Positions 13,911-40,903 of a stretch of DNA of 47,829 nt are shown piece after piece. The notes under the pieces were generated by a model, which ran no database searches, was not told the origin of the DNA, and was given only the letters and a program-made list of their open reading frames with translations. The number at the start of each line of letters is the position of its first letter. The first letter of the stretch is position 1. The stretch lies in sequence record DRR378314_1381. The stretch is one strand, 5' to 3'. The translations under genes and the position numbers were made by a program.

Positions 13911-13964
13911 AGCGGACATTCGTAACAAGGCTTTGCAGTTCCGGCTTCGGACTATAAGCCGTCA
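13907..13964 (+). repeat. Module-boundary repeat (copy 2)
   Basis: CCAAAGCGGACATTCG...TTCCGGCTTCGGACTATAAGCCGTCA; abuts the IS30 truncation on one side and contains the copD stop on the other. Confidence 0.65.
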
Positions 13965-15181: not shown

Positions 15182-15193
15182 CTGAGTTTTCCT

Positions 15194-18634: not shown

Positions 18635-18688
18635 TTCAGGCTGGGTGCTGAATAGGGCGGTAAAGAATTTTCCGAAAAGGTTGTTTTG

Positions 18689-19085
18689 AATCCGACCCTT
18701 CGCTGCGCCTCTTTTGAACTGGCGAGATGCGGACCAATCCCGACCTTGGGTTTCGCGCCTTCGCTGACGCAGCATTGGTTTGCGGTCGCAGCGCAATTGA
18801 TTTTGCAGCGCGGCGTGGGGCGTCAATCCGGTCATTCGTGGGTGTCGATTCCGCTCGTACCAATACCGTACTTTCGCGGCAACCTGGATCAACCATCGAG
18901 ACGCGGGACAATCCCGCCTTTTGCTCGCGCAGCTATTGCTAACGCAGCATTTTCTCGCGGGCGCGGCACGTACATCGCTGCGTCGCAGCCAGTGCCGCCA
19001 AATCGGTCATTCAAAGCCAATTTTGGGGAGCGAAACCCAAACTGCCTTTTCGCTGCGAGCCTGATCAACCGACGCGGAGCGGAAC
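18689..19085 (+). repeat. Degenerate tandem array of ~175-bp non-coding units (about 2.3 copies)
   Basis: Anchors recur at 174-176 bp: TTCGC(T/G)GC 18699/18873/19049, CAATCCCG 18735/18909, ACGCAGCATT 18767/18942, CGGTCATTC 18829/19004, GATCAACC 18887/19063. Confidence 0.75.
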
Positions 19086-19285
19086 GTTTTAGACATTAAT
19101 GAATTTGGCTTTCGCTGGCGCAGAAATGCTTCCGGAACGCGGCAAGATATTCACGTGCGTTGCATTTATTTATCGACGACGCGACCATCTAACTGACTTT
19201 CGGGAGCTCATTTTTACCGGTCTGTCTTCTCGATGATGCATTAGCTCATTGAGAATTCAACCGGCATCTCTGATTCCACGAGGAG

Positions 19286-20839
19286 CTATGCCTTCAAAGT
19301 TGAACCACCGTAGGCTGAACGTACCTCGACTTCTTCACCTGCGTTCAATCTCAACCCACTGATGATGTCATAGTCTTCGATCCGCCCATTTTCGCGCCGG
19401 ACATTGAAACTGTTCAGACCACCGTCGGAGGCATTCTGTTCCGACCAGACCGGGACTTTCGCGTGTGAAAATCCGCAGGACATGGTGGCAGGTGCATTCA
19501 TGCGATAGCGGGTCACGACGCCGTCGCCCCCTGCGTATTCCCCAGTGTTCTTGGGTGCGATGTTAAGCTCCTTAGCGACGACGTCAAAGCCATATCGCGC
19601 TTCTGCGATCTCGATGGGACAATTGAACGTGTCTCCATGCGATGTCGAGTACATCGCATTGGTTCCTGCGCGCTCCTTCGTGGCACCCCACCCGCCCATC
19701 TGAGGTTCAACCATGGCATAATTGCGACCTGTTTCTGGGTGTTGTCCTGCGATGACTGTTCCAAAGATCGTACCAAAATGACCGGCAGGCAGAAGCCCTG
19801 GCGCGGCCTTTGCCATGCAATGCCAAAGCGCGTCAAAAAGACGGATGCGTGTTTCAAAGTAATAGGCATGTGCGGCCGTCGGCCCCGCCTCGAAGATGGT
19901 GCCGGGCGTTGTGCGTACTTCCAGAGGGGCAAACGACCCAGCGTTGGCAAAGCGTTCTGGGTCCGTAAGCGCCTTAAAGAACATCTGGCAGGCGATCACA
20001 GCCCCATCCCGGCTGGTGTTGTGCGGACCACCTGATTGCAAAGGGGCCTGTGTCAGGTCAAAGGAGATGCAGTCATCGTTGATGTCAATTCCGATATCCC
20101 AAACGTCGCCGTTGTCTTGCGGTTCTTGAATGCGAAAAGACCCCTTGGGCAGTTTCGAAAGCCCTGCCCGTGCACGCGCTTCGCCAATCTGGCGAGCGTC
20201 CAGAATGGCATTGCGCATGGCATCCGGACCGTAGCGGTCGCAAAGCCGACGAATAAGTCGCGCTGCCCGCCGTCCTGCTGATACCTGTGCCCAAAGATCG
20301 CCAGAGACAAAATCGGGTAGCCGCGAATTTGTCTTGATGATGTCGAACACTGCATCGCTGCGTTCTCCGCCAGAGAAAAGCCTGACGACGGGAAGGCGCA
20401 GGCCCTCTGCAAATATTTCGGTGGCGTCGGCGGCCATGGACCCGGGTGTTTTGCCCCCGATGTCGCCCCAATGGGCGATCGAAGCGACCCAGGCGACGCG
20501 GATCCCATAGTGAAACACGGGTTCCGCGACCACAACGTCATTGAGGTGCGTAACACCGCCAGTATTAGGGTCATTGGTGACAAAGACGTCCCCTTCAGCG
20601 ATGTTGTCGCCTTCCTTTGAAAGGATCGCTTTGACAGTTTTGTCGAGCACCCCAATAAACGAGGGTATGCCAGCGCCGGAACTGACAAGCTCACCGTCAG
20701 CATCTGTTACGCCTGTGCCCACATCCAGCACTTCATAAATGATCGGGCTCATCGCGGATTTTCGAAGAACTTCGAACATTTCTTCGGCTGCAGCATCCAG
20801 ACCGGATTGCAGGACAGAGGATGTAAACGGATCAGACAT
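19286..20839 (-). CDS. Hydantoinase B / oxoprolinase family subunit (second copy)
   Basis: AMSPIIYEVLD, NDPNTGGVTHLND, AHWGDIGG, EIFAEGLRLP, GGWGA; lacks the usual C-terminal GxGYG tail. Confidence 0.9.
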   Translation of the reverse strand: MSDPFTSSVLQSGLDAAAEEMFEVLRKSAMSPIIYEVLDVGTGVTDADGELVSSGAGIPSFIGVLDKTVKAILSKEGDNIAEGDVFVTNDPNTGGVTHLNDVVVAEPVFHYGIRVAWVASIAHWGDIGGKTPGSMAADATEIFAEGLRLPVVRLFSGGERSDAVFDIIKTNSRLPDFVSGDLWAQVSAGRRAARLIRRLCDRYGPDAMRNAILDARQIGEARARAGLSKLPKGSFRIQEPQDNGDVWDIGIDINDDCISFDLTQAPLQSGGPHNTSRDGAVIACQMFFKALTDPERFANAGSFAPLEVRTTPGTIFEAGPTAAHAYYFETRIRLFDALWHCMAKAAPGLLPAGHFGTIFGTVIAGQHPETGRNYAMVEPQMGGWGATKERAGTNAMYSTSHGDTFNCPIEIAEARYGFDVVAKELNIAPKNTGEYAGGDGVVTRYRMNAPATMSCGFSHAKVPVWSEQNASDGGLNSFNVRRENGRIEDYDIISGLRLNAGEEVEVRSAYGGSTLKA

Positions 20840-21920
20840 TGATGGTCACCAGATCGCGCGAAAGATCAGACAGGATTTCGGGACCGTCCTTGCGCAGGAT
20901 GACGATCTCTTCCAGACGAATTCCAAATTGGCCGGGCAGGTAAATCCCCGGCTCAATGGAGAAAACCATACCTTCGTCCAATACAGCGTCGGAACTGGTG
21001 GTAATGTAGGGTGGCTCGTGTACCTCGGTCCCCAGACCATGCCCTGTGCGGTGTACGAAAAATTCGCCATACCCCGCATCCGTGATGACTTTGCGCGCGG
21101 CCAGATCAACTTTCTTGGCGGCAACGCCCGGCCGTGCAGCCGCCAGTGCCGCCTTAACGGCTTGATCTACAATTTGGTGGACGTCCGCATATCCGTCAGG
21201 CGGATCACCCAGAACCGCCATACGGGTGATATCGCTGCAATACCCATCCATCCTGCCGCCAATATCCATAACGATCACGTTCCCAGGCTTCAGAAGCGTT
21301 TCGCCGGTCTGATGATGTGGGAAAGCGCCGTTTTCGCCAGCGCCCACAATACCAAACAGCGGCTTTACTTCTTGTTTAGAAAAACTTTCTTTGATGATTT
21401 GGCCCACATCCGATTCTGACATACCCGGCTTCATCGCCGCCCAAGCGGTCTGCAAAGCGACATCTGCTGTGTGCGCATTGGCCTTGAGCTTTTGATATTC
21501 ATCTTCACTTTTGCGCATCCGCAACGCGCCAACCGTAGAGGCCGAAAACTGCCGCTTGGCCTGCGGCAGGGCCTTCTCCACTAACGCGGCAAAATCAGCG
21601 CGCATGGTTTCGTCAAGCGCCACATGGCCCGCGTTGTCGGCACCGATTTGTTTTAACAGCCGTGCAAACTGTGCGTTCGGACCATCTGCATCGGACCATT
21701 CAAAGAATGGAATGCGTGTCTGCTTGCGAGCGCTCTCTGCCTCAAGCGTGGGCATTAAAAAGGCGCAGTTATCTGCGCTAATGCACATCAAAAGCGGGCG
21801 TTCATCGGCATGTGGGTGCATTGAAGTCAGCCACTCAAGATGGGCACCGGAGCCGAGCACCACGAGGTCGACCCCTTCGGTTTTCATCTGTTGACGCAGT
21901 ATTTTAATGCGATCAGCCAT
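20832..21920 (-). CDS. Xaa-Pro peptidase (M24B, prolidase-like)
   Basis: LRMRKSEDE, PHH, VMDIGG..GYCSDITR, HRTGHGLGTEVHEPP, FSIEPGIY..GIRLEE. Confidence 0.93.
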   Translation of the reverse strand: MADRIKILRQQMKTEGVDLVVLGSGAHLEWLTSMHPHADERPLLMCISADNCAFLMPTLEAESARKQTRIPFFEWSDADGPNAQFARLLKQIGADNAGHVALDETMRADFAALVEKALPQAKRQFSASTVGALRMRKSEDEYQKLKANAHTADVALQTAWAAMKPGMSESDVGQIIKESFSKQEVKPLFGIVGAGENGAFPHHQTGETLLKPGNVIVMDIGGRMDGYCSDITRMAVLGDPPDGYADVHQIVDQAVKAALAAARPGVAAKKVDLAARKVITDAGYGEFFVHRTGHGLGTEVHEPPYITTSSDAVLDEGMVFSIEPGIYLPGQFGIRLEEIVILRKDGPEILSDLSRDLVTINV

Positions 21921-21944
21921 TTCTGAGCTCTCCGTTATGTTGGA

Positions 21945-22748
21945 TTAGGCTGGCACCACGATCCGGTTGCCAAAGATATCGTCCTGATCAAACACACCGA
22001 TTGCTGCCATTTCTGTTTCGGTTGGTGCTTCGCAGGACCACTTTCGACTTGGTTTCCAACCGCAGTTAGATTTCAGCTCTGCCGCATATTCTGCCTCTTT
22101 CAATGCTGCGATCGAAACATCAATCACCGGCACGCCAAGATCTTTTTCCATGGCTTCATGAAACCCGATTTCAAGTGTACACCCCAAAACGATTGCTTCG
22201 GCGTGATCTTTTTCGATCGCATCGTGGCCCACCCGTGTGAGCAACGCATTGGTCTCTGCGTGATCTGACTGAAAATCATTCACACCCAGACCAACGGAAT
22301 AAAAGCCAGAACAGGAGGGGCCAAAACCGTAGGAATTTACAGTCGAACTCATTTGGTCGACCCATTTCTGCCGACCTACGATCACTCCAAATCGGTTGGC
22401 CAGATTAGTGGCCACCCGGCAGGACGCTACGCAAGGCGCAGTGACAATCATGTCACCGGAAACCTCACGCGCATCATGCAGCGCCGTGTCATAAAAACAC
22501 CCAATGGCAAGAGCATCGAAGCCTTCTTTGGCGGCGGCGCGGGTTGCCTTGATGATCCCGCCTGTAACCATCGCCTCATAGGATCGAAACTCGATATGGG
22601 TGAATTTGCCTTCGGATTCTGCAAGAGACGTGATGTGGACCTCTGTTCCCGGCAACTTGTATTTTGCAGCCATGTCCGCAAAAACCTGATCATAAAGAGA
22701 GGTACCTACGGGGTTGAGGTACATGACTTTTCGTTTCGCAGCGGTCAC
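21945..22748 (-). CDS. Asp/Glu/hydantoin racemase family protein (copy 2)
   Basis: YLNPV, AIGCFYDT, AIVLGCT, VPVID; both catalytic Cys retained. Confidence 0.9.
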   Translation of the reverse strand: MTAAKRKVMYLNPVGTSLYDQVFADMAAKYKLPGTEVHITSLAESEGKFTHIEFRSYEAMVTGGIIKATRAAAKEGFDALAIGCFYDTALHDAREVSGDMIVTAPCVASCRVATNLANRFGVIVGRQKWVDQMSSTVNSYGFGPSCSGFYSVGLGVNDFQSDHAETNALLTRVGHDAIEKDHAEAIVLGCTLEIGFHEAMEKDLGVPVIDVSIAALKEAEYAAELKSNCGWKPSRKWSCEAPTETEMAAIGVFDQDDIFGNRIVVPA

Positions 22749-22760
22749 TTTGAAATCTCC

Positions 22761-23561
22761 TTAGTTGATCGCAGGCACAACGATGCGATTGCCGAACGGG
22801 GCTTCGACATCAAAAACACCGAGTGCTTGCATTTCGGCTTCATCCGGGGCTTCGCAAGACCATTTGCGGCTGGGTTTCCAGCCGCAGGTCTCACGGTTGC
22901 TACCGAGATGTTCTGCGCGCAGAAATGCGGCCGTGGCAGGGTCGACAACCGGCACATCTAAAGCCCTTGCCATGGTTTCATTAAAGCCGATTTCCATGGT
23001 GCAACCCAGGATCAGCGCCTCGGCATGATCGTCCTCGACAGCCTTGCGTCCGGCCTGCATCAGACGTTCGGCAGTCGTGTCGTGATCCATTTGGAAATCG
23101 GTGACCCCCAATCCGACGGGGTAGAACCCGCTCAGCCGGTTTTCATACCCGTTCGCAACAACTGTGCTGTGCATCTGGTGGACCCATTTTTGCCGGCCAA
23201 CGATGATGCCGAAACGATTGCTGAGCGATGAGGCAATGTCACATGAGGCAGCACAGGGGGCCGTGACGATCATTTCGCCGGATATCTCTTGCGCGTCTTT
23301 CAACGCGGTGTCGTAGAAACAACCGATGACACAGGCGTCGAAACCTTCGTTCGCGGCGGCTCGTACACCTTGAAGAATATGTGGCGTGACCATCGCCTCA
23401 TAGCTGCGAAATTCCACATGATTGAACCGGCCCGCGCTGTCCGGCAGGCAAGTTACATGAACCTCGGTATCGGCGCGTTTGCGGTGCCGAACCATGTCAG
23501 CAAACAATTCGTCATGGCCCGACCGATGGACGACCGGGCTAAGGTACATGATGCGGGTCAT
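22761..23561 (-). CDS. Asp/Glu/hydantoin racemase family protein (copy 1)
   Basis: VIGCFYDT, ALILGCT, VPVVDP; shares WKPSRKWSCEAP tail with copy 2. Confidence 0.9.
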   Translation of the reverse strand: MTRIMYLSPVVHRSGHDELFADMVRHRKRADTEVHVTCLPDSAGRFNHVEFRSYEAMVTPHILQGVRAAANEGFDACVIGCFYDTALKDAQEISGEMIVTAPCAASCDIASSLSNRFGIIVGRQKWVHQMHSTVVANGYENRLSGFYPVGLGVTDFQMDHDTTAERLMQAGRKAVEDDHAEALILGCTMEIGFNETMARALDVPVVDPATAAFLRAEHLGSNRETCGWKPSRKWSCEAPDEAEMQALGVFDVEAPFGNRIVVPAIN

Positions 23562-25204
23562 GTATGAGAGCCGTAAATGTCGGTTGCTGCCTGCGCCGTC
23601 ACGAAACCGTTCTTGACGTCCAAAGCAAGCGCTTTAGTGTCGCGATCTTTTGGATCACCATAGCCTGCGCCTGAGGATGTCACGACACGGACAACATCAT
23701 CCGTGGTCAGATCAAGTCCCGATACAAACGAATAGCGTTCGGTTTCGTCACCTTTGATGACTTCAACGTAGTTTCCAGAGCCTTCATTGCCACCCTCAAG
23801 TGACCAGGGCTTTACTTTTGAACGAGTATAGCCCGCCGTCAGAAACCCGTGGTCAGTGCGAATGCGGTATTCCAGAACCAACCCGCGTCCGCCGGTGAAT
23901 TTTCCCTCGCCACCCGGTTCGGTATTCAGTGCCATCTTATCGACATACAGACCATTGCGCGCCTCAGAGATCTCGGCGGGTGTATTGTAGGTTTCGCCGT
24001 GGAAGCCTGAGAAAATACAGGGATTTCCATCTTGCCCGTCCCAAGCGCCCCAGCCGCCAATTTGCGGCTCAATGATGGTGTACTGGCGTCCAGTATCAGG
24101 ATGGATGCCGCCGATGAATGTTCCACAGATCGAACTGAAATGCCCGGCAGGCAACCGGGCTGGGATGTGAGGTGCCAGACAACGCCAGATCAAATCATAG
24201 ACCCGTACCTCGGTTTCGAAATAGAATCCAATCGCTGCAGGTTCTTTTGCGTGAAACACCGATCCTTCGCGCGTTAACACTTTCAACGGGCGGAACGAGC
24301 CATCATTGGCGGGCGTTTCAGGGTCGGTCAGCGATTTAAACACCATCTGTGCACAAACATAGGTGCCATCTTGGCTTGTGTTGGTGGGCCCTGCGTCCTG
24401 ATCGGGGTTGTCGCGCAGATCGACGATGAAATCCGTATCGGTGATTGTGATCTTGACATTGAATACGCGACCATCATCCTGATCTTCGCTTAGCTCAAAT
24501 GTGCCCTTGGGTAGATGGGCAAGCTCGGAAATGGCGGAAGCTTCGCCAAAGGCCATGAAGTTTTCCATCGCCGTGATGAATGTGTTTGCCCCGTATTTTT
24601 CGGCCAACCCTTCCAGCCGTTTGGCCCCGACCCGAACTGACGCAATGGCAGCCCAGACATCGCCCAGCAGAAAATCAGGCATCCGGCTGTTGGTCGTTAT
24701 GATGTCCATGACCGCTTGATCGGTGACGCTCTCCCGGACCAGCTTGACCGCAGGAAGGCGCAGGCCCTCTTGAAAGATCTCGGTCGCATCACCGGACAGC
24801 GATCCGGGTGCCATGCCACCCACATCGGAATTGTGGGCGATGTTCGCTGCCCATGCGATCAGCTGGTCGCCTGCAAACACAGGCATCGCCAACACCAGAT
24901 CGTTCAGGTGTGTCACCCCACCGTGCCATGGATCGTTGGTGATGAAGACGTCGCCGGGGCGAATGTCATCATGCTTGCCAAGAATGAATTGAACCGACTT
25001 ATCCAGTACCCCAATGAAGGCGGGGATGCCAGCGCCAGAAGATGCGATACGCCCTTGGGCATCTGTAATCCCGGTGCCCATATCCAGCACTTCGTAGATG
25101 ATCGAAGACATGGCAGTTTTGCGCATAGCAGCGAACATTTCATCGGCTGCTGCCTGTAGTGAGTTCTGGATGATCTCCAGTGTGATTGGGTCAGCATTGC
25201 TCAT
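23558..25204 (-). CDS. Hydantoinase B / oxoprolinase family subunit
   Basis: DPITLEIIQNSL, NDPWHGGVTHLND, AHNSDVGG, EIFQEGLRLP, GAGYGDPKDRD. Confidence 0.93.
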   Translation of the reverse strand: MSNADPITLEIIQNSLQAAADEMFAAMRKTAMSSIIYEVLDMGTGITDAQGRIASSGAGIPAFIGVLDKSVQFILGKHDDIRPGDVFITNDPWHGGVTHLNDLVLAMPVFAGDQLIAWAANIAHNSDVGGMAPGSLSGDATEIFQEGLRLPAVKLVRESVTDQAVMDIITTNSRMPDFLLGDVWAAIASVRVGAKRLEGLAEKYGANTFITAMENFMAFGEASAISELAHLPKGTFELSEDQDDGRVFNVKITITDTDFIVDLRDNPDQDAGPTNTSQDGTYVCAQMVFKSLTDPETPANDGSFRPLKVLTREGSVFHAKEPAAIGFYFETEVRVYDLIWRCLAPHIPARLPAGHFSSICGTFIGGIHPDTGRQYTIIEPQIGGWGAWDGQDGNPCIFSGFHGETYNTPAEISEARNGLYVDKMALNTEPGGEGKFTGGRGLVLEYRIRTDHGFLTAGYTRSKVKPWSLEGGNEGSGNYVEVIKGDETERYSFVSGLDLTTDDVVRVVTSSGAGYGDPKDRDTKALALDVKNGFVTAQAATDIYGSHT

Positions 25205-27282
25205 GCGGTCTCTCCCAATTCGATATGGATATTGCGATAGGTATCCACGCTGACTTTGTTGCCGGGGTGGATGACGATTGTCGTACCGGGATCCTCGACC
25301 ACAGCGGGGCCGTTAAAGGTCATGCCCGGTGATAGTTCTCCACCATCGTAGATGTCTGCCAAGTGCCGTCCCTCAAGTGCGTAATCGACCGTGCGCCTGG
25401 ATTTGATTGCTCCGCTGGCGTCCGCGTCTCCCATAGGAGCTGGCGACATCTCAATCTTGCCAACTTCCGCGCGGGCGACAAGGTGGATGCCCACCATCTC
25501 GACCGGGGCATCAAGGCGATAAGTATATTCCCGTTCATACGCCTCGCGGAAGTCTTCGGCGATCTGATCCAGCTTGGCGTCAGTAACAGCGCCATCAAGC
25601 AATACTTCGGTCGTGTGTTCCTGATTTTGGTAGCGAAACTTGCCGTAACGCAAGAAAGACACTTGTTCAGCGGTGACACCGTCGGCTGCAAAGGTCTCGC
25701 GCGCTTTGGCTTCCGCCTCGGTAAAGATGTGTTCGATGACGCCGCCCGCACCTTCCGACAGTTCCGCCAGTTGCGTAACAAAAAAATCGCGCCGCAGGTC
25801 TGACATCATCATCCCCCAGGCTGAGAACACCGCCGCCGCCGCAGGGACAACGACCTTTTTGACCTGTAGTTCCTGTCCAAGGGCAACGGCGTGCATGGCA
25901 CCACCACCGCCAAAGGCCAGCAGCGTGAAATCGCGTGTGTCATGACCACGGTTCAGCGAGACGAGCTTCAGCGCGTTGACCATGTTGTTGTTGGCAATAC
26001 GGATGATACCACGGGCCGCTTCATCCGCATCAACTTCAAGTTTGTCGCCCACGGCTTTCAGCGCAGCCTCTGTATTGGCCATATCGGCTTCGATGGAACC
26101 CCCACAGAAATAGTCGCGATTGATCCGGCCCAGCCAAAGGTTTGCATCTGTAGTTGTCGCAGCTTCGCCACCCTTGCCATAGGCCGCGGGGCCAGGTAGC
26201 GCGCCGGCTGATTGCGGGCCAACGTGCAGCTTGCCAAAGTCATCGACCCAAGCGATAGAGCCACCACCATTGCCGATCTCAACCAGATCAACCACCGGCA
26301 CCATGATCGGATAGCCTGCAGATTTACGGGACCGCTCGATCCAGTAATCCGTCATGATGCGCACTTCGCCATCTTCGATCAGTGAGCATTTCGCCGTGGT
26401 GCCGCCAATATCCAGCGCAAGGATATTTGGTTCGCCAATCAGTTTGCCCAGTTCAGCTGCCCCCCAGAACCCAGAGGCCGGGCCGCTTTCCACCATGGTG
26501 ATCGGCACGGCCGAAGTTGCGGCAAGGCTGTCGACGCCGCAGTTTGACTGCATGATAAACGGCGATTGCTTCAGCCCGCCCTGTTTCATCCCCTCGTCCA
26601 GTTTACCCAGATAGCGCGCTGCAACAGGCTGTACATAGGCTGACAGCACGGCGGTGTTGGAGCGTTCATATTCACGCCACTCGCGGGTGATTTGATGGCT
26701 GGCCACAACCGAGACCTCGGGCCACATGCGCGTAACCTCGGCCAACAGCGCCTCTTCATGTGCGGTGTTGGCGTAGGAATGCAGCAGGCTGATCGCGACG
26801 GCCTGGACCCTTTCGGCGCGGAAATCCTTAAGGATGGCGGGCAGACCGGACAGATCCAGCGGCGCACGTTCCGTGCCTTGATAAGTCATCCGTCCAGGGA
26901 CCTCAGCACGCAAGTGACGCGGCACGAAGGGTTCAGGTTTTTCATAGTGAAGGTTAAAGAAATCCGGGCGGTTGCCGCGTGCGATCTCTAGCGTATCGCG
27001 AAACCCTTCAGTTGTGATCAGCCCAACTTTGACGCCCTTGCGTTCGGTCAGCGCGTTGATGACCACTGTTGTGCCATGTGCCATGAAATCCACATCGGCG
27101 GTGGCAATACCGTCTGCTTCCATCTTGCTCAGCACGTTCAGCACACCTTGTTCGAAATTGGGTGGGGTCGTGTCAGACTTTGCGGTTACGACGCGCATGC
27201 CATCGTCCCCTGTCTCAAAGGCCACAAGATCGGTAAATGTTCCGCCTACATCCGTGGCAACACGTCGGATTGAATTTGTCAT
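25201..27282 (-). CDS. Hydantoinase A / oxoprolinase family ATP-binding subunit
   Basis: DVGGTFTD, HGTTVVINAL, SGPASG, DIGGTT, GGGSIA, GPQSAGALPGP, FGGGG; AAGGAG RBS before ATG 27282. Confidence 0.95.
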   Translation of the reverse strand: MTNSIRRVATDVGGTFTDLVAFETGDDGMRVVTAKSDTTPPNFEQGVLNVLSKMEADGIATADVDFMAHGTTVVINALTERKGVKVGLITTEGFRDTLEIARGNRPDFFNLHYEKPEPFVPRHLRAEVPGRMTYQGTERAPLDLSGLPAILKDFRAERVQAVAISLLHSYANTAHEEALLAEVTRMWPEVSVVASHQITREWREYERSNTAVLSAYVQPVAARYLGKLDEGMKQGGLKQSPFIMQSNCGVDSLAATSAVPITMVESGPASGFWGAAELGKLIGEPNILALDIGGTTAKCSLIEDGEVRIMTDYWIERSRKSAGYPIMVPVVDLVEIGNGGGSIAWVDDFGKLHVGPQSAGALPGPAAYGKGGEAATTTDANLWLGRINRDYFCGGSIEADMANTEAALKAVGDKLEVDADEAARGIIRIANNNMVNALKLVSLNRGHDTRDFTLLAFGGGGAMHAVALGQELQVKKVVVPAAAAVFSAWGMMMSDLRRDFFVTQLAELSEGAGGVIEHIFTEAEAKARETFAADGVTAEQVSFLRYGKFRYQNQEHTTEVLLDGAVTDAKLDQIAEDFREAYEREYTYRLDAPVEMVGIHLVARAEVGKIEMSPAPMGDADASGAIKSRRTVDYALEGRHLADIYDGGELSPGMTFNGPAVVEDPGTTIVIHPGNKVSVDTYRNIHIELGETA

Positions 27283-27283
27283 G

Positions 27284-27766
27284 TCAGGCTCCTTTTCGGA
27301 CGGCATTAGCGACCAGAAGTGCCAATGCGCCGGGTTGTTTCAGAGTTTCGGCGGCTGCAACGCGGTCTGCCGTATAGTGTCCCGCCTTGTGCAGGCAGTT
27401 GAGCGTGCCGATGACCTTCCCCGCGACAACGATTGGCAGGTTCAAACAGCTTTCGCAGCCAAGCGACTGGATCAGCTCGTGGTCAGGAAAAACCGAGGCG
27501 ATTTCCTCTATCGTATTTGCTACAAATGTTTCGTGGCGACCCTCAACCTGAGCACTCCAGGCGTCTTCCCGCATCGGTTTTTCACCGGTCGCGGGATAGG
27601 CATCGGGCATATTTGTGTAGCTGCGTCGCGCAACACGCTTTTCTCGGTCGAGTTCCATGATTGTGAACAATTTTGCGCCAATTGTTTTGGACACCTCATC
27701 CGCGACCGCCTTGAAGATCGCTTCGGGCTGGTTGGGGTGGGATAGGATTTCTGTGAAATCTGTCAT
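27284..27766 (-). CDS. Stand-alone GAF domain protein
   Basis: IGAKLFT..RRSYTNMPDAYP..FPDHELIQSLGCESCLNLPIVVAGKVIGTLNCL. Confidence 0.85.
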   Translation of the reverse strand: MTDFTEILSHPNQPEAIFKAVADEVSKTIGAKLFTIMELDREKRVARRSYTNMPDAYPATGEKPMREDAWSAQVEGRHETFVANTIEEIASVFPDHELIQSLGCESCLNLPIVVAGKVIGTLNCLHKAGHYTADRVAAAETLKQPGALALLVANAVRKGA

Positions 27767-28560
27767 GAGGACTCCGCTAGTTTGTCTCGCAGCGCCATTT
27801 CGTCGGGATCGACCACAGGCACCGCACCGATCAGTTTTCTGGTGTATTCCGCTTGAGGCTGTGTAAAAATCTGTTCGGTCGTTCCGCTTTCGACAAGCCG
27901 GCCCGACTGAAACACTGCAACGCGGTCAGCGATGTTGCGTACTACGGCAAGATCATGGGTGATGAACACATAGGTCAACCCGCGTGACGCGCGCAGTTCA
28001 TTCAGCAACCGCAAAACACGCGCTTGTACAAGCACATCCAGCGCGGAAGTGGGTTCATCAAGAACCAAAAGCTCGGGCTCGCAGGCGAGTGCACGTGCAA
28101 TGCCGACACGTTGCCGCTGACCGCCAGACAACGCCGCAGGCGCACGTTTGCGCATATTGGCAGGCAGGCCGACAGCCTCAAGCGCCTGTTCAACGATCTG
28201 CCACCGATCAGCGCGCGCGCCGATCCCGTAGGTATCCAAACCCAATCGCACAGACGCCCCAACCGACCTTTTGGGATTGAGGGAAGACAACGGGTTTTGC
28301 TGGACCAGTTGAATGTGGCGACGTTGATCCGGTGTGCGTTTTGGCGACAGCACGGTGTCGTTGAACAACACATTTCCGCTGGTCTGCGCCAGAATACCAA
28401 GGATCATATTGGCGAGGGTCGTTTTCCCGGACCCGCTTTCGCCGACAATGGCAAGACATTCGCCCTGCGTCACCTCTAGCGATACATCGCGCACCGCATG
28501 TATCTTTCCGGCAGGGCTGTCGAAGGTCTTGATCAAGTTCTCGAGAGACAAAAGGCTCAT
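27763..28560 (-). CDS. Peptide/nickel ABC transporter ATP-binding protein (DppF-like)
   Basis: GESGSGKT, LSGGQRQRV, LDEPTSALD. Confidence 0.95.
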   Translation of the reverse strand: MSLLSLENLIKTFDSPAGKIHAVRDVSLEVTQGECLAIVGESGSGKTTLANMILGILAQTSGNVLFNDTVLSPKRTPDQRRHIQLVQQNPLSSLNPKRSVGASVRLGLDTYGIGARADRWQIVEQALEAVGLPANMRKRAPAALSGGQRQRVGIARALACEPELLVLDEPTSALDVLVQARVLRLLNELRASRGLTYVFITHDLAVVRNIADRVAVFQSGRLVESGTTEQIFTQPQAEYTRKLIGAVPVVDPDEMALRDKLAESS

Positions 28561-29426
28561 GCTACGCCCCCGTGACTGATCTGAGGAGCGAAGAAGTCTT
28601 CGCTGACTTCTGGCACTTCCGGCAGTCCTGCGCCCGTGATGCGCGGAACCGCTGACATAAGGGCGCGCGTGTAAGCATGGCGCGGATCTGAAAAAAGCGC
28701 CTGCGTCGGCCCGTCCTCGACAATATTTCCGCGGTAAATCACGTAAACCCGATCGGCGAATTCGCGCACCACACCTAGATTGTGCGAGATGAACAGCACT
28801 GCCGTGCCATGATCCGCAACCAGATTGCGCATCAGCGTTAACGTCTGGGCCTGAACGGACACGTCCAAAGCGGTGCCCGGCTCATCCGCCAAAAGCAGTT
28901 TCGGACGATTGGCTAGTGCCATCGCTATCATGACCCGTTGGTTCATGCCGCCGGACAATTGAAACGCGTAGGCATTCAAAACCCGGTTCGGATCGGGGAT
29001 CGAAACCTCGCCCAACATCTTCGTGGCTCTCTCTTGGCACGCATCTGCACCCATGGATGGGTCACGCCTTCGCAAAACCTCGGTGAACTGTCGCCCGATT
29101 GTAAATGCCGGGTTCAGGGATGACGTCGGGTCCTGAAAAATCATCGACATATCTGTCCCTCTAAGTGCTGCACGCGCTTTGGGGTTCATGGCTGAGATGT
29201 CGTTCCCATCGAACTTGACCGCGCCCGAAATTCGCGCCGACCGAGTTTCTTGTAAAAGGCCCAATACGATCCGCGCGGTGACCGACTTGCCCGATCCGCT
29301 TTCACCGACAAGCGCCACACGCTCGCCCTGCGCGATGTTCAGGGAAATGCCGTGCAACACGTTGTTGATACCGGACAGCCCTTTGAACCCCAGATGCAGG
29401 TCACTGATGCTTAGCAGAGCGCTCAT
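28557..29426 (-). CDS. Peptide/nickel ABC transporter ATP-binding protein (DppD-like)
   Basis: GESGSGKS, MIFQDP, LSGGMNQRV, ADEPGTALD. Confidence 0.95.
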   Translation of the reverse strand: MSALLSISDLHLGFKGLSGINNVLHGISLNIAQGERVALVGESGSGKSVTARIVLGLLQETRSARISGAVKFDGNDISAMNPKARAALRGTDMSMIFQDPTSSLNPAFTIGRQFTEVLRRRDPSMGADACQERATKMLGEVSIPDPNRVLNAYAFQLSGGMNQRVMIAMALANRPKLLLADEPGTALDVSVQAQTLTLMRNLVADHGTAVLFISHNLGVVREFADRVYVIYRGNIVEDGPTQALFSDPRHAYTRALMSAVPRITGAGLPEVPEVSEDFFAPQISHGGVA

Positions 29427-30256
29427 TCGTCTACCCCCAGAACTTCACGTAGGCCGTCGCCCATCAGGTTGAACCCGAAGACTGCAATCAGAATTGCGAG
29501 GCCGGGGAAAACGGTCAGCCACCAGCTGTCTGGAAGATAGCGCGCACCCTCGGCGACCATTGATCCAAGATCCGGCGTCGGTGGCTGCACCCCAAGCCCA
29601 AGGAAAGACAGGGACGAGGCGATGATGATCACAAAGCCCATATCCAGAGTCATTTTGGTGATAATCGCTGGTAAGCAGTTAGGAAGAATTTCGCGAAAGG
29701 CGATATGGGCCGTACCCGCGCCGATCACCTCGGCAGCTAACACATAGCCTTCTTCGCGCTCTGACCGGGCAATCGCGTAGACCAGCCGCGCATACCAGGG
29801 CCACCACATGACCGTCACGGCGAGCATGGCGTTTGTCAGTGTCGGCTCCAGCACACCCATCATCGCGATGGCCAAAACCAGCGGTGGGATAGACAGGAAC
29901 ACATCGACAATGCGCATCAGAATTGCCTCGGCCCAACCGCCAAGATAACCCGCCAGCAGGCCGAAGATCGTACCGACCGGGGCGGCGATGGCCAGGACAA
30001 CCACGCCCAGCACTAGCGAAATCTGATAGGCGTATAGAATTCGACTGAAGAGATCGCGCCCAACCAGATCAGTGCCCATCCAATTGCGCGCGGATGGGGG
30101 CTTGTTTGCAAAGGCAAAATCCACAACCGCACCGTTATGGGTGGGAAATGGTGCAATCCAGGGGGCGAAGATGGCGGCAAACACGACCAAAGCGACAAGG
30201 ATCACACCCACCAGTGACAATGGGTTGGCTGCCAGTATTCGGATTGCGCGGATCAT
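29423..30256 (-). CDS. Peptide ABC transporter permease (DppC-like)
   Basis: MGTDLVGRDLFSR, YVLAAEVIGA, LSFLGLGVQPPTPDLG. Confidence 0.95.
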   Translation of the reverse strand: MIRAIRILAANPLSLVGVILVALVVFAAIFAPWIAPFPTHNGAVVDFAFANKPPSARNWMGTDLVGRDLFSRILYAYQISLVLGVVVLAIAAPVGTIFGLLAGYLGGWAEAILMRIVDVFLSIPPLVLAIAMMGVLEPTLTNAMLAVTVMWWPWYARLVYAIARSEREEGYVLAAEVIGAGTAHIAFREILPNCLPAIITKMTLDMGFVIIIASSLSFLGLGVQPPTPDLGSMVAEGARYLPDSWWLTVFPGLAILIAVFGFNLMGDGLREVLGVDE

Positions 30257-31281
30257 CAGGTTGCCCTCGTGGAATGGCGGATGCGCGGATTAAGAAACGC
30301 GATCAGTAGATCGACGATGACGTTCACAATGAGGAACGTCAGCGCGATGATCAAAACGGTGCCCATGATGGCGTTGAGATCCTTACGTAAGATCACCGCT
30401 ACGCCATAGCGGCTCAGCCCTGGCCAAGCGAAGACTGCCTCTACCAGAAAGGCGTTGCCCAACATGGCCGCAAAATCGAGGCCAATGATCGTCAATGATG
30501 GGATCAGCGAAGGTTTAAACGCATAAATGCGCGCAATACGAGAAGGAAAGAACCCGTAGGCCTGTGCCATCTCGATGTAGGGTTTATCGTAGGTCTCTAC
30601 CATATTGGCGCGGGTAAGTCGGGCCGCTTGACCTATCCCCGACAGTGCAAGCGCCACGGCGGGCAGGATCAGATGGCGAATGGCGTCACCAAACGCCGCG
30701 ATATTCCCGGCCAGCAGCGTGTCGATCAGAAGGAAACCGGTATGCCGGTCGATGTCATAGATGTCCGAAATACGACCTGCGATGGGAAAGATCGGCAGAT
30801 AGAATGCAAAGAGAAGCATCAGGATTACCGCCCAGACGAAACTGGGTGCTGACACCGTCAGCAACGAGAAAATTCGTATCAGATGATCAGGCCAGCGGCC
30901 ACGATAGCGCGCAGCAAGTATTCCCAGTGGCAGGCCCAAGGCGACCATGATGATGCCGGCAATCAAAACCAGTTCAAGCGTTGCGGGCAAGAATTGCGCG
31001 ATGTCCAGTGTCACGGGACGATTGGTATAGAGCGAGGTGCCCAAATCACCGCGGCTTACATCTGCCAAGAAATGCCCGTATTGCAACACGAGCGGTTCAT
31101 CGAGGTGCATTTCCGCCCGCAGATTTGCAACCTGCTCGGGCGTGGCATTGGGGCCAAGCGCGATGCGCGCCGGATCGCCGGGAATAACTCGGGCAATGGT
31201 AAAGATCAGCATGGAAACCCCGATGAGGACAATCAAAGAGATACCAAGCCGTCTAAGAAGAAGGCGGAGGACAGGGGACAT
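30256..31281 (-). CDS. Peptide ABC transporter permease (DppB-like)
   Basis: IPGDPA, GDLGTSL, LPATLEL, VEAVFAWPG. Confidence 0.95.
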   Translation of the reverse strand: MSPVLRLLLRRLGISLIVLIGVSMLIFTIARVIPGDPARIALGPNATPEQVANLRAEMHLDEPLVLQYGHFLADVSRGDLGTSLYTNRPVTLDIAQFLPATLELVLIAGIIMVALGLPLGILAARYRGRWPDHLIRIFSLLTVSAPSFVWAVILMLLFAFYLPIFPIAGRISDIYDIDRHTGFLLIDTLLAGNIAAFGDAIRHLILPAVALALSGIGQAARLTRANMVETYDKPYIEMAQAYGFFPSRIARIYAFKPSLIPSLTIIGLDFAAMLGNAFLVEAVFAWPGLSRYGVAVILRKDLNAIMGTVLIIALTFLIVNVIVDLLIAFLNPRIRHSTRAT

Positions 31282-31299
31282 TTATTTGCTCTGGAAAAG

Positions 31300-31325
31300 G
31301 CCGGGCACCTGCGTAGGCGCCCGGC
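31300..31325 (-). terminator. Intercistronic hairpin after the SBP gene
   Basis: Minus strand GCCGGGCGCCT-ACGC-AGGTGCCCGGC followed by CTTTT. Confidence 0.6.
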
Positions 31326-31339
31326 AGTTCAGGGAGGTA

Positions 31340-32908
31340 CTATTCTTCAACCATTTCCATCAGACGGAAGCTGAAGCCCATTCCATCCAGACCGAAGGCC
31401 TGCGAAGGATCGCTGAGCGCCGGAGCCTTGACCCGGTTCGATGCCGCGAAGACCGACTGACGATCATATCCATAGATCGTCGGTGCGATTTCCATGAGCC
31501 GTGCATTAAGCCCAGAATACGCAGCCTCGCGCTCTTCATCCGTTGAAGCGCTACGCCCTGCATCGAGGAACGCGTCAACCTGGCTGTCATTCAGGTACTC
31601 GGGCGATTGCCATGTGCCCGGTGTGGATGAGTGATACATGCCATAAAGCAGTGTATCCGGGTCACCGGTGACGGCGTTTACAAAGATCTGGCTGACATGC
31701 GGAGTGTTTTCGGGTTTGGACACTTGTTCAGCAAACAGCGCCCAGGGAAGTTTCTTAATTTCGGATTGTACGCCCAATTGCGATAGATTCGACTGGAATA
31801 GCAGCGCAAAACGCTCTTCCAGCGGAACCTCGGCAATCCAGGATACTTCGATATTCATATCGGCAGGATCATAGGCGCAGGCTGAAAGATACTCTGCCGC
31901 CTTTTCGAGATTTTGCGCTTGAACGTTGTCAGGCCCGTTTGCCCCGAACATACCCACCGGGATTGCGCCGGTCGCAGCACTGCCAGAGGAGACATCATCG
32001 GTGATGGCAACCATCTGAATGGCAGTCTGGTAGTCGAATGCGTGAGCCAATGCCAGGCGGCAGTTCACGTCATCCAGTGGAGGCTTGGTGGTGTTCATCT
32101 TCAGATAAAAGGCACCGGTTCCGGTTTCACTGAACAACTGCGCACCATCGTTGGCGAGGGCTGTCATGACCTCGGGCGGTAGCCATTGGCTTGAAATGTC
32201 ATGTTCACCCTGTGCGATCAGGGTGCGGACGGTCGCGGCCTCAAGACCATACCTCAGACGCACCGTGTCAGGCGCAACATCGGAAACGCCAAGGAAATAG
32301 CCATCATTCTTGGCCATAACCGTTTCTTCCTGTGGGTTGTGGGAGGTTACGGTGTAGGCACCCGTTCCTGCGCCATTGGCGCTGAGGAAAGCCTCGCCCC
32401 ATTCGTCATCACCCTTTTTTGCTTCTACCAGCGCCTTGTCGACGATTGGCAAACGGTCAAGTGAGGCAACAAACGGGGCGTATGGCTGTTCAAGCGAGAA
32501 GACGACTATATGTTCATCGACCGCTTCGGCGCTTACTCCGGCCAAAAGATAAGAAAGACCTGAACCCAGTGCCTGACTGCGTTCCAGTGAATAGACAACG
32601 TCTTCGGCGCGCAGTGGATTGCCAGACTGGAAGGTCACATCATCGCGAAGATTGAACGTGTAGGTCGAGCCATCCACCGACCAGTCGCTGGCAAGATGTG
32701 GCACATGCCCCGGTCCACCCTGTTGCGGCAGGACCAGGGTGTCATAGACGTTGAACATCAAGATCGAGTCCGCATAGTCCGATGCCTTGGCTGGATCGAG
32801 TTCACCGACCGCAACTTCATCAAGCCGCAAAACAGTCTCTGCAAAGGCTGGTGAACTGAGGGCTGTCGCGGCGCACAGAGCCGCAGCAAGCAAGGATTTC
32901 CGCTTCAC
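31340..32908 (-). CDS. ABC substrate-binding protein, family 5 (DppA/DdpA-like)
   Basis: Signal peptide, LDPA, NVYDTLV, YTFNLRDDVTFQSGNPL, GTGAY. Confidence 0.93.
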   Translation of the reverse strand: MKRKSLLAAALCAATALSSPAFAETVLRLDEVAVGELDPAKASDYADSILMFNVYDTLVLPQQGGPGHVPHLASDWSVDGSTYTFNLRDDVTFQSGNPLRAEDVVYSLERSQALGSGLSYLLAGVSAEAVDEHIVVFSLEQPYAPFVASLDRLPIVDKALVEAKKGDDEWGEAFLSANGAGTGAYTVTSHNPQEETVMAKNDGYFLGVSDVAPDTVRLRYGLEAATVRTLIAQGEHDISSQWLPPEVMTALANDGAQLFSETGTGAFYLKMNTTKPPLDDVNCRLALAHAFDYQTAIQMVAITDDVSSGSAATGAIPVGMFGANGPDNVQAQNLEKAAEYLSACAYDPADMNIEVSWIAEVPLEERFALLFQSNLSQLGVQSEIKKLPWALFAEQVSKPENTPHVSQIFVNAVTGDPDTLLYGMYHSSTPGTWQSPEYLNDSQVDAFLDAGRSASTDEEREAAYSGLNARLMEIAPTIYGYDRQSVFAASNRVKAPALSDPSQAFGLDGMGFSFRLMEMVEE

Positions 32909-33552
32909 TTATTCTCTCCCTTTGATTTGTTATTATTTCCTCCGCCAAGCGAAGAAATCTTGTGAATTGGGGACGGCGCGTCGCCAAAAACATCCATGGT
33001 TCCGCACCACAGGATCGACGCTGTCACAATGCCGTGGTTCCATGTCGAATGAACGCGTGTGCTGTCAAAGTGGATCGTGTCTCCCTTTCGCAGCACTTCC
33101 TTGTCGCCTTCGATTTCCACGGTAATTTCGCCTTCGAGGATGAAAAACATTTCCTCACCCTTGTGACTGATTGGCTCACTCCGATGGCCGGGTGGTTCAT
33201 GCAAAACGACGGAGTGCAATTGCGATCCTGTGAAGGTCGACGAAACGCGCTCGTAGGACGCCGCAGCACCTGGAACCGAATACACTTCGCGCCCTTTGCT
33301 GCGCGTCATATCTCCTGCATCGGGCTGTACAAGGAACGACCCGCGCGGCATTTCTAGAATTTCTGTGATGCCTGCAAGAGACGCAAGAGAAGGTGCGGAC
33401 AGCCCTCGTTCGATCTGGCTTATAAAGCCGACCGACAGACCTGCTGCGTTTGCGACGGCCTGCATCGTCAATCCCATTTTTTTTCGGCGAGCGCGAATGG
33501 CAAGTCCGAGTTCTAGAGCTTGGTCGTTTTCGGCGAGTGATTTTTTTAACAT
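32905..33552 (-). CDS. XRE family regulator with cupin domain
   Basis: IRARRKKMGLTMQAVA..LSVGFISQIERG HTH; HKGEEMFFILEG..GDTIHFDSTRVH cupin. Confidence 0.92.
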   Translation of the reverse strand: MLKKSLAENDQALELGLAIRARRKKMGLTMQAVANAAGLSVGFISQIERGLSAPSLASLAGITEILEMPRGSFLVQPDAGDMTRSKGREVYSVPGAAASYERVSSTFTGSQLHSVVLHEPPGHRSEPISHKGEEMFFILEGEITVEIEGDKEVLRKGDTIHFDSTRVHSTWNHGIVTASILWCGTMDVFGDAPSPIHKISSLGGGNNNKSKGENK

Positions 33553-33613
33553 GACTAAAATACTACACACGCTGATGCGATCGCGTCAATATAATTTTAG
33601 TATGGGTAAAATT
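33544..33613. promoter_or_regulatory. Candidate XRE-cupin operators TTTTA-N7-TAAAA
   Basis: Copies at 33544-33560 and AATTTTA-N7-TAAAATT at 33593-33613 in the AT-rich operon leader. Confidence 0.5.
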
Positions 33614-33859
33614 TTGTCATGCCTTGTTTTTAGTTCAAGTTAAAATATTTGACTTTTTTGTACATTTTCAATGGCATAACAACCCAAGGCTTCCCAATTG
33701 CGCAATGCTACGTATAGGTGCTTAGGCCATTTTGCATTCAATTTCCTGAACTGGTGATAAAACTTACGGTTGTTCTGAAACCCCAAGAACAGCCCATGGG
33801 TCTCTGATTTATGGTAGGGTGCTCGCCAATCCAGTTGGTCGATAGCTGTTGCGGATAAA

Positions 33860-34260
33860 GTGAACGGCTGCAAAGTCCGCAACCTGTGAATTGATCACTT
33901 GGAAAAATGCTGCGCTAGGCACTAACGGCCGATCAGACTGCCGCTCTGCATCAAGAAATTTTCGCTTGCGCAGAAATCTTAGCGCTGCGAGCGGATGCAG
34001 CGGAAAAATCAAAGGAACAGATAGGACTCGCTCCTGTCTTTCTCTGCGCTATTGATGAGCGGCTGGTCGCAGCCCAAACTTGCCGTTCAATTGTGACGCG
34101 CCGCTCTGAATGCTGCATGTGCGAGGATTTCCAACCATTCCAGCGAAAGCGGACCTTCAACCGGTCCCGAGTACTCTTGCTGATGCTGCAAGCTGCACCA
34201 GAGGCAGCGAAGCGCAGAAAGTAGACTTTGCAAAGTCGAGCGCACTGCCGTTCACAAACG
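33860..34260. repeat. Cluster of module-boundary repeat elements
   Basis: AAAATGCTGCG 33904-33914 (reverse complement of 18943-18953), AAGCGGACCTTC 34147-34158, GCGCAGAAAGTAGACTTTGCAAAG 34212-34235. Confidence 0.65.
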
Positions 34261-34285
34261 CTAGAAAATCGAATTCGATGCCGCG

Positions 34286-37547: not shown

Positions 37548-37614
37548 AGCATCTGCCCCGGTGTCTTGGATCGCAAAGTCTCGGAAAGTGTCTTGACAAT
37601 GCGCACGCATAGGT

Positions 37615-40859: not shown

Positions 40860-40903
40860 CTCGCCTCTATGGTTTGAATACACTCTTCGTACTTTTCTAA
40901 TAC

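Follow-up and report, generated by a model that had tools for sequence, protein, structure and literature searches.

The stretch of DNA analysed here, hereafter the window, comprises 47,829 nt of record DRR378314_1381 and carries at 19286-33552 an operon of 13 genes which, on balance, probably serves the catabolism of proline-containing cyclic dipeptides, that is, cyclo(Xaa-Pro) 2,5-diketopiperazines (DKPs). The operon encodes a regulator, an ATP-binding cassette (ABC) importer of five components, a GAF protein, a predicted ATP-dependent lactamase with one alpha subunit (HyuA) and two beta-subunit paralogues (HyuB1 and HyuB2), two racemases, and a metallopeptidase of family M24. The same class of substrates had been proposed in a preliminary description of this DNA. 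The proposal is partly supported, on comparative grounds, by the conservation of the M24 peptidase, by one cluster that contains proline genes, by the OpaE-like racemases and by a binding protein devoid of the anchors for peptide termini, while its argument from two stereocentres had to be given up.

Gene Content and Layout of the Operon

The 13 open reading frames (ORFs) listed between 19286 and 33552 all lie on the minus strand and abut or overlap, in agreement with the co-oriented operon described earlier; every gene was found at its place and the Pfam identities agree. Junction lengths were computed from the first start codon in each ORF, and by this measure most junctions are indeed overlaps. 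In detail, overlaps of 4 nt join the genes of the regulator and the substrate-binding protein, the DppC-type permease and the DppD-type ATPase, the two ATPases, the DppF-type ATPase and the GAF protein, HyuA and HyuB1, and HyuB1 and racemase 1. The other overlaps measure 1 nt (between the two permeases), 8 nt (M24 and HyuB2) and up to 23 nt (GAF and HyuA). Intergenic gaps separate the binding protein from the DppB-type permease (58 nt), racemase 1 from racemase 2 (12 nt) and racemase 2 from M24 (24 nt).

None of the 13 proteins reached an NCBIfam equivalog cutoff, so that naming the genes by orthology is impossible. Neither Rfam families nor tRNA genes were detected in the window, and E. coli genomes gave no megablast match to the region. 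Domains of the carbamoylase type (CN_hydrolase, M20, amidohydrolase) were found by Pfam and NCBIfam in none of the 13 proteins. The absence of an N-carbamoylase noted in the preliminary description is thereby borne out, and on this ground a classical hydantoin-utilisation operon was rejected. The classical hyu clusters (hydantoinase, N-carbamoylase, hydantoin racemase) share with the window a ring-opening amidase and a racemase of the same subfamily; they differ in that the operon lacks the carbamoylase, has racemases with a hydrophobic pocket of the OpaE type and uses an Xaa-Pro peptidase as its second hydrolase.

Conservation of the Gene Set

One genome per species was scanned with an HyuB alignment, with confirmation by tblastn, and the 77 loci treated below represent the best 80 of 621 relatives. 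In each locus, ORFs were called and matched by BLASTP with the 13 proteins of the operon at a coverage of at least 50%, and a gene was counted at an identity of at least 40%. Counts of downstream genes refer to the 59 loci with at least 4.5 kb beyond HyuB1, and counts of upstream genes to the 56 loci with at least 9 kb.

The loci belong to Rhodobacterales, Hyphomicrobiales, Acetobacteraceae, Inquilinaceae and metagenome-assembled genomes (MAGs) labelled Granulosicoccaceae. Upstream, HyuA is present in 56/56 loci, the GAF protein in 52, each component of the ABC importer in 50-52 and the regulator in 51. Downstream, the M24 peptidase is encoded in 52 and HyuB2 in 41 of the 59 loci, and the number of racemases varies (none in 26, one in 32 and two in a single locus). 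The gene set is not a chance juxtaposition: most of the 77 loci, which come from other species, repeat it with its order kept. Genes beyond the module are not common to the loci, and the only recurrent extra gene encodes an MDR-type oxidoreductase. As judged from these comparisons, the operon is a conserved, portable module of many marine and soil bacteria, and probably a self-contained and horizontally mobile one.

The MDR-type gene (ADH_N plus ADH_zinc_N) was found in 8 of the 77 loci, placed between HyuB1 and M24 or the racemase (L003:11760-12761, L061:11781-12800, L020:11633-12631 and five other loci), and is absent from the window. Its product might handle dehydro- or hydroxy-substituted ring substrates.

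The M24 Peptidase and a Possible Link to Proline

The gene at 20832-21920 encodes an M24B metallopeptidase of the Xaa-Pro dipeptidase type. The protein combines Peptidase_M24 (2.1e-60) and Creatinase_N (1.2e-12) domains with the motifs VMDIGG, SDITR, HRTGHGLG, SIEPG and RLEE, which we take to be those of the metal ligands, and thus has the domains and all five motifs of an M24B prolidase. Its best matches in the PDB are a dipeptidase of P. horikoshii (6.4e-64) and prolidases; DoeA follows only at 9.3e-11. On this ranking and the motifs, an identity as creatinase or ectoine hydrolase was rejected. Equivalogy with PepQ or YpdF was likewise rejected (181.5 and 172.6 bits against cutoffs of 630 and 393).

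According to the preliminary description, a peptidase that is not conserved in homologous clusters would refute the proposed pathway. The peptidase proves to be conserved: apart from its presence in 52 of the 59 loci, M24 peptidases of distant lineages adjoin orthologous HyuAB genes elsewhere. A tblastn search of plasmids returned 761 records, of which 11 were picked by hand across taxa and inspected. The cluster of Thermus thermophilus pTHTHE1601 (HyuB identity 61%) contains genes for XRE and cupin proteins, a racemase, a binding protein, two permeases, two ATPases, an Xaa-Pro peptidase, HyuA, HyuB and a second HyuB of 524 amino acids (aa), in a gene order different from that of the window and with no GAF gene. 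In Ketogulonicigenium (68%) and 'Roseateles' XES5 (71%), HyuAB lie beside an intact M24 gene and a racemase gene. Novosphingobium (43%) also has an intact M24 and a racemase, but here a TonB receptor replaces the ABC system. B. thailandensis (59%) has XRE, HyuA, HyuB and an M24 of the aminopeptidase P type with 462 aa. Planococcus (40%) retains a fragment of M24 only, and Mycetohabitans, A. vitis, Devosia and Haloferax (40-62%) have no M24. Among the culturable hosts are Oceanicola granulosus HTCC2516, Stappia stellulata DSM 5886, Thermus thermophilus SG0.5JP17-16 and Parageobacillus thermoglucosidasius C56-YS93.

Compared with the other proteins of the module, the M24 peptidases of these clusters have diverged much further: their identity to the one in the window is 27% for Thermus, 26% for B. 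thailandensis, 30% for Novosphingobium and 37% for Parageobacillus. The respective HyuA identities are 62% in Thermus and B. thailandensis and 53% in Novosphingobium, with the four clusters spanning 50-62%. Different M24B lineages have therefore apparently been recruited to the same lactamase, and this separate recruitment argues for a common product similar to Xaa-Pro.

A further arrangement is that of Parageobacillus thermoglucosidasius pGEOTH01 (HyuB identity 44%), in which genes for a racemase, a major facilitator superfamily (MFS) transporter, XRE, HyuA, HyuB, a cupin and an Xaa-Pro peptidase are followed by those for pyrroline-5-carboxylate (P5C) dehydrogenase (pruA) and proline dehydrogenase (ProDH). 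This adjacency suggests, at the level of gene neighborhood, that the end product of the pathway is connected to proline.

A different group of clusters pairs HyuAB that are 57-79% identical to those of the window with a sugar-type ABC system and lacks M24. It includes A. vitis (L081), Devosia neptuniae (L088) and two of the 77 loci (L022 and L023), and the partners of HyuAB there are proline-racemase-family genes or, as in L022 and L023, a flavin adenine dinucleotide (FAD) oxidase. Probably they are sister pathways for another lactam, and their composition indicates that the substrate range varies within the clade. Together with L034, which has an M20 peptidase and one more HyuAB pair, and L036, which has an amidohydrolase, L022 and L023 make up four of the seven loci without M24, and all four are variants with different partners.

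The Racemases

Racemase 1 (22761-23561; Asp_Glu_race 4.9e-26) and racemase 2 (21945-22748; Asp_Glu_race 1.2e-24) are OpaE-like members of the HYD subfamily and paralogues of each other with 61% identity. For both, OpaE is the best match in the PDB (5.2e-25 and 2.1e-26, respectively), and matches to allantoin or hydantoin racemases are weaker by 10 to 20 orders of magnitude (for instance, 3.1e-12 for racemase 1 and allantoin racemase). The cysteine pair of the subfamily is present: the cysteines of racemase 2 align with Cys90 and Cys199 of OpaE and with those of KpAllR, and both motifs are kept in racemase 1.

The study of OpaE (PMC12661438) describes the OpaE-like pocket by V/I/L at position 20 (89%), Y/F/W at 25 (74%), V/I/L at 131 (95%) and G/P at 132 (86%), and gives Asn/Asp12, Thr/Ser118 and Thr119, in KpAllR numbering, as the substrate-binding residues of allantoin racemases. 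In the alignment, V14, Y19, V124 and G125 of racemase 2 agree with the OpaE-like pocket at 4/4 positions. An allantoin or hydantoin racemase proper was rejected, as racemase 2 has Val, Val and Gly in place of Asn12, Thr118 and Thr119. By alignment, the window racemases appear closest to the OpaE-like branch of the HYD subfamily.

Another member of the subfamily, NozR, is reported in PMC10156859 to interconvert alone the LL, DL and DD forms of cyclo(Trp-Trp). In these studies, the characterised members other than the hydantoin enzymes have rings of the DKP type as substrates and act at their alpha-carbons, and a single enzyme can suffice for both centres. The preliminary description had assigned the two racemases to two stereocentres. 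Since NozR serves both centres and the copy number among the loci is 0, 1 or 2, this argument is removed, and the general DKP reading is strengthened. The window racemases resemble NozR, a D/L isomerase of DKPs from Nocardiopsis, and OpaE, an epimerase from Aspergillus, in their subfamily and in the Cys-Cys dyad; OpaE is in addition the best solved match and the model of the pocket consensus. Both relatives are biosynthetic tailoring enzymes, whereas the racemases of the module stand in a catabolic operon and are optional. The identity to OpaE is low (E ~1e-25), and the likeness to NozR is one of subfamily.

The Importer and Its Binding Protein

The importer consists of a periplasmic family-5 substrate-binding protein (31340-32908; SBP_bac_5 1.1e-63), a permease of the DppB/OppB type (30256-31281; BPD_transp_1 and BPD_transp_1_N), a permease of the DppC/OppC type (29423-30256; BPD_transp_1 and OppC_N), and ATPases of the DppD (28557-29426) and DppF (27763-28560) types, each with ABC_tran and oligo_HPY. 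The E-values are 1.1e-36 and 5.6e-30 for BPD_transp_1 in the two permeases and 2.7e-30 and 1.7e-35 for ABC_tran in the two ATPases. The Dpp-like parts score 200-270 bits against models of peptide/nickel transporters.

The binding protein has a Sec-type signal peptide in residues 1-25 and stays under every NCBIfam cutoff, with 78 bits vs 1005 for the DppA model. Its best PDB match is 5u4o (1.4e-31), and AgaA (6hlx) is matched at 8.4e-19. In order to compare the ligand pocket, 43 orthologues (from the window, 40 loci, Thermus and Ketogulonicigenium) were aligned with DppA of E. coli MG1655. Asp408 and Arg355 of DppA, both present at these positions in the fetched sequence, are reported in the structure papers of DppA to hold the ammonium and carboxylate groups of the dipeptide. 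The column of Asp408, which sits in a well-aligned block ending with an invariant GDPD, contains V in 37 orthologues, M in 4, T in 1 and N in 1. The segment of five residues that holds Arg355 is deleted in 43/43 orthologues.

The loss of both anchors, read from the alignment, would fit a ligand without free termini and argues, in a supportive way only, against a plain dipeptide importer. Together with the score, it led to the rejection of the binding protein as a member of DppA. In comparison with the Dpp system of E. coli, the five-component architecture and the Pfam families are common to both, and the difference lies in the binding protein, with its low DppA score and without equivalents of Asp408 and Arg355.

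The Lactamase Subunits and the GAF Protein

HyuA (25201-27306; Hydantoinase_A 1.4e-84, with Hydant_A_N and Hydant_A_C) is predicted to be the ATP-binding alpha subunit of an ATP-dependent lactamase, HyuB1 (23558-25204; Hydantoinase_B 3.1e-150) its hydrolytic beta subunit, and HyuB2 (19286-20839; Hydantoinase_B 2.3e-126) a second beta-subunit paralogue that is short at the C-terminus. The A and B domains are matched end to end (E 1e-18 to 1e-150), which places the proteins in the hydantoinase/oxoprolinase superfamily. The solved chains are distant relatives: 7hk5, an N-methylhydantoinase (2.4e-122 for HyuA and 5.2e-65 for HyuB1), and 6yra (4.7e-107 and 2.4e-43, respectively). No curated NCBIfam model for 5-oxoprolinase or N-methylhydantoinase was matched. 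Caprolactamase CapAB (NF050156, NF050157) was rejected, with 512.5 bits for HyuA, 198.5 for HyuB1 and 168.4 for HyuB2 against a cutoff of 1000, as were the subunits of acetophenone carboxylase (81-272 bits; cutoffs 1250-1500).

HyuA and HyuB1 are unusually conserved across genera, with ~80-87% identity, and in the same loci the regulator and the GAF protein reach ~45-70%. Among the matches listed, HyuB1 identity is 83-93% across all 120 relatives; those with a name come for the most part from marine Rhodobacterales or Stappiaceae, and some stem from Tara samples.

HyuB2 shares 48% identity with HyuB1 and ends ~30 residues earlier. In the tree it belongs to a separate clade of 47 sequences with a support of 1.0, and all 47 stop before the C-terminal GDP...YG segment, which the second HyuB of Thermus lacks likewise. 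The N-terminal motifs common to HyuB1 are retained. Our guess is that HyuB2 may be an alternative beta subunit that widens the substrate range.

The GAF protein (27284-27766; GAF_2 9.4e-13) is a stand-alone protein of 160 aa. Its model has a predicted local distance difference test (pLDDT) value of 95.6, and the fold search returned generic sensory GAF domains with template modelling (TM) scores of 0.65-0.78. No sequence match was found in the PDB or NCBIfam, and the protein atlas gave only clusters named "GAF domain-containing protein". An identity as free methionine-R-sulfoxide reductase was rejected, since this enzyme (fRMsr, 3mmh) ranks 43rd with a TM score of 0.58. Wherever the gene occurs in the upstream set, it lies directly upstream of HyuA, variants with other transporters included. 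As it keeps this place though the transporter or M24 differs, the protein probably serves the enzyme and not transport; it could, as a guess, be a ligand-binding accessory of HyuAB. Pfam detected no GAF fusion among 14 unusually long HyuB relatives (0/14), whose extensions are pieces of HyuA or have no match, and a complex prediction of HyuA with GAF, run without supplied alignments, scored 0.00, which says nothing either way on binding.

Proposed Pathway

From the observed gene content, conservation and family assignments we infer the substrate, the bond opened and the order of the steps as follows. The family-5 binding protein and the ABC transporter would import the uncharged ring compound under the control of the XRE-cupin protein. 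Where present, the two-cysteine racemase of the OpaE/NozR kind would interconvert D and L forms at the ring alpha-carbons, a step that would admit DKPs epimerised by heat or base and those containing D-residues. HyuA, with ATP, would phosphorylate the lactim of the sole N-H amide of the ring, and HyuB would hydrolyse it. The tertiary Xaa-Pro bond would survive the opening of the ring, with linear Xaa-Pro as the product, and the M24 prolidase would split the latter into Xaa and proline. Prolidases are specialised in the tertiary Xaa-Pro bond. Because only the Pro-CO-NH-Xaa amide can form a lactim and the Xaa-Pro bond is left, the model would explain why the partner conserved with the lactamase is a prolidase instead of a general dipeptidase. 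In the case of 5-oxoprolinase, hydrolysis without coupling is unfavourable, and a coupling to ATP here would parallel that enzyme. Proline DKPs readily form and epimerise on heating, and for this reason the presence of the module in the thermophiles Thermus and Parageobacillus would fit the model.

The chemistry has precedents in the family. In the paper on caprolactamase (PMC6061476), ATP-dependent lactamases are described as phosphorylating the enol (lactim) tautomer through the alpha subunit and as requiring the beta subunit for hydrolysis. In one sentence, the closest to a gene assignment met in the literature searched, it speculates that cyclic dipeptides may be hydrolysed by some of the proteins annotated as oxoprolinases. 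Similarly to N-methylhydantoin amidohydrolase, OplAB and CapAB, the module has the two-subunit A/B architecture and its domain content, and would be expected, from this paper, to proceed by ATP-dependent phosphorylation of the lactim followed by hydrolysis. It differs from them in that its subunits remain below the equivalog cutoffs of CapAB and are only distant relatives of the solved enzymes. The module also adds a family-5 ABC importer, a prolidase, a GAF protein and a second B paralogue short at the C-terminus, none of which is known to belong to these systems.

Alternative Explanations

Two alternatives keep the lactamase and the peptidase in one route and change the substrate. Linear peptides with an N-terminal lactam, such as pyroglutamyl-proline, would follow the same logic of lactamase and Xaa-Pro peptidase, with HyuAB acting like a 5-oxoprolinase and the prolidase then cleaving Glu-Pro; importers of the Dpp type normally carry peptides, and the proline link of Parageobacillus fits such a substrate equally. 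It would leave without a role the OpaE/NozR-like epimerase of ring alpha-carbons that 33 of the 59 loci encode, and the binding protein, by its alignment, appears to lack the segment equivalent to that of Arg355 for the C-terminal carboxylate, so that this substrate is considered unlikely. Even less probable is a route for hydantoins or N-alkylhydantoins without the classical carbamoylase, in which HyuAB would open a 5-substituted or N-substituted hydantoin in the manner of N-methylhydantoinase and M24 would hydrolyse the N-carbamoyl imino acid so formed, that is, a tertiary ureide. Among solved structures, the best relative of HyuA and HyuB carries the annotation N-methylhydantoinase, the racemases fall in the subfamily of hydantoin and allantoin racemases, and family M24 includes the non-peptidases creatinase and DoeA. 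The racemase pocket, however, is without the polar Asn and Thr of those racemases, M24 is nearer to prolidases than to DoeA, a carbamoylase is missing among the 13 proteins, N-methylhydantoin is achiral and would make a racemase needless, and the Parageobacillus cluster indicates proline as a product.

The remaining two start from the importer. Octopine-type Ti plasmids have an agropinic acid (aga) region with an Opp-like importer and a HyuAB-like lactamase, and there, as in the operon, import by a family-5 ABC system is combined with an ATP-dependent lactamase; no M24 peptidase is known from this region. Another imported lactam, be it an opine or a plant or algal N-heterocycle like agropinic acid, with M24 acting on a non-peptide amide, would agree with the weak match of the binding protein to the opine binder AgaA within family 5, with the relatives of HyuAB that occur beside FAD oxidases or sugar-type ABC systems (L022, L023, A. 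vitis, Devosia) and with the optional MDR oxidoreductase. Xaa-Pro-type M24 peptidases from at least three distant lineages beside orthologous HyuAB point instead to one peptide-like product, Parageobacillus adds the genes of proline catabolism, and opines of the Ti-plasmid type would be unexpected in marine Rhodobacterales, in which the module is common; another lactam is therefore held to be improbable, about as much so as pyroglutamyl-proline. Ordinary peptide uptake, in which linear Xaa-Pro would be imported and cleaved by M24 while HyuAB recycles 5-oxoproline as a side-product, would make sense of the scores of the transporter parts on peptide/nickel models and of prolidase as the fitting peptidase. 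The binding protein speaks against it by its low DppA score and the loss of both peptide-terminus anchors, and so does the fact that the invariant partner of M24 is HyuAB and not the transporter: HyuAB and M24 are kept with other uptake systems in Parageobacillus (MFS) and in Novosphingobium and Gluconacetobacter (TonB receptors). Neither the racemase nor the second HyuB would have a role, and we regard this possibility as remote, on a par with the hydantoin route.

Several points weigh against the catabolism of cyclo(Xaa-Pro) as well. The evidence for it is comparative for every member of the clade, and HyuA and HyuB are equally distant from all characterised enzymes, so that their sequences give no hint of the substrate. 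The argument from the binding protein rests on an alignment with DppA at roughly 20% identity, and family-5 proteins that bind opines or metals typically lack the two anchors as well. The racemase is optional, and M24 is missing from 7 of the 59 loci; in three of these (L051, L055 and L057) the module is complete in all other respects. Four of the 11 hand-picked plasmid contexts are also without M24, and two of the four, A. vitis and Devosia, pair HyuAB with a sugar-type ABC system. With Parageobacillus queries, tblastn found no ProDH in the window or in L001-L086 and a single weak match to PruA (L055, 31% identity); no second context of this kind having been found, the adjacency to proline genes rests on one, distant cluster. 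The loci are mostly alphaproteobacterial and many are MAGs, and such counts from related species do not represent independent events. Finally, the GAF protein and HyuB2 are left unexplained by the DKP model.

Regulator, Flanking Regions and Other Genes of the Window

The first gene of the operon (32905-33552) encodes a regulator with an XRE-type helix-turn-helix (HTH_3 4.4e-10) and a cupin domain (Cupin_2 9.6e-16). Its ATG is at 33552, which is also the end coordinate in the preliminary description, and an earlier GTG at 33570 appears in the ORF list. The match to a PuuR-like model is weak (60.9 bits; cutoff 211).

The AT-rich region upstream of it, at 33553-33700 (minus strand), is a candidate promoter/operator, a function inferred from promoter-like hexamers and a 16-nt palindrome. 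Promoter-like sites occur at 33671-33560. The scans for promoters and terminators gave hits no commoner than in shuffled sequence, and these sites are therefore weak evidence. The palindrome TGATGCGATCGCGTCA (33573-33588) overlaps a -35-like hexamer immediately upstream of the regulator gene and is a candidate operator for the XRE-cupin protein. Non-coding flanks extend on both sides of the operon (18640-19280 and 33900-34280); several short motifs similar to GCGAAAG/CTTTCGC can be seen in them by eye, and were not reported by the repeat finder at the settings used.

Elsewhere in the window, the ORF at 7743-8615 has repeats with a period of 12 nt, rich in GAT, GAC and CGN codons (repeat families D1 and D2), and encodes a repetitive protein rich in Asp, Arg and Gly. 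A small copper-related cluster at 13962-16125 (minus strand) comprises a CopD-domain protein, a cytochrome c and a DUF411 protein. Inverted repeats of 63 nt, 81% complementary, at 34173-34235 and 38639-38701 flank a segment of 4.4 kb with genes for an adenylate-cyclase-TPR protein (34286-36136) and a GNAT-methyltransferase fusion (36483-37610). The interval between the gene of a LacI-family regulator (39849-40883, minus strand) and that of a DUF1989-GcvT fusion (40968-43295) holds, at 40908-40951, two arms of 18 nt with a complementarity of 94% and a spacing of 8 nt, which are likely an operator. The next genes, at 43327-47684, encode an OpuAC binding protein, parts of an ABC system and an alpha/beta hydrolase.

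Significance of the Module

Proline DKPs are among the commonest small cyclic peptides from microbes and heated protein, and they resist ordinary peptidases. In the literature searched, which covered few subscription journals, no assignment of DKP hydrolysis to genes was found, and a survey of 2013 still called the enzymes that open the DKP ring 'unknown' (PMC3852281). With a chance that we put slightly short of even, the operon may be the first genetically defined bacterial pathway of DKP catabolism. It would then comprise an ATP-dependent 'diketopiperazinase', in which HyuA works with either of two beta subunits and is assisted by the GAF protein, together with an epimerase for DKPs, a prolidase dedicated to the pathway and a binding protein adapted to cyclic dipeptides that carry no charge, and it would have spread by horizontal gene transfer.

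The operon offers a cloneable candidate set of transporter, epimerase, ATP-dependent hydrolase and prolidase. If the reading is confirmed, the enzymes could be used to remove DKPs that taste bitter or are unwanted and to prepare enantiopure dipeptides. The hydantoinase/oxoprolinase family would gain a new class of substrates, and thousands of marine genes annotated as 'N-methylhydantoinase' or 'oxoprolinase' would be explained. The distribution of the module among the marine Roseobacter group, rhizobia, acetic acid bacteria, Thermus and Bacillota would then amount to a major sink of proline DKPs in seawater, soil and hot environments, and possibly to a means of removing DKP signals.

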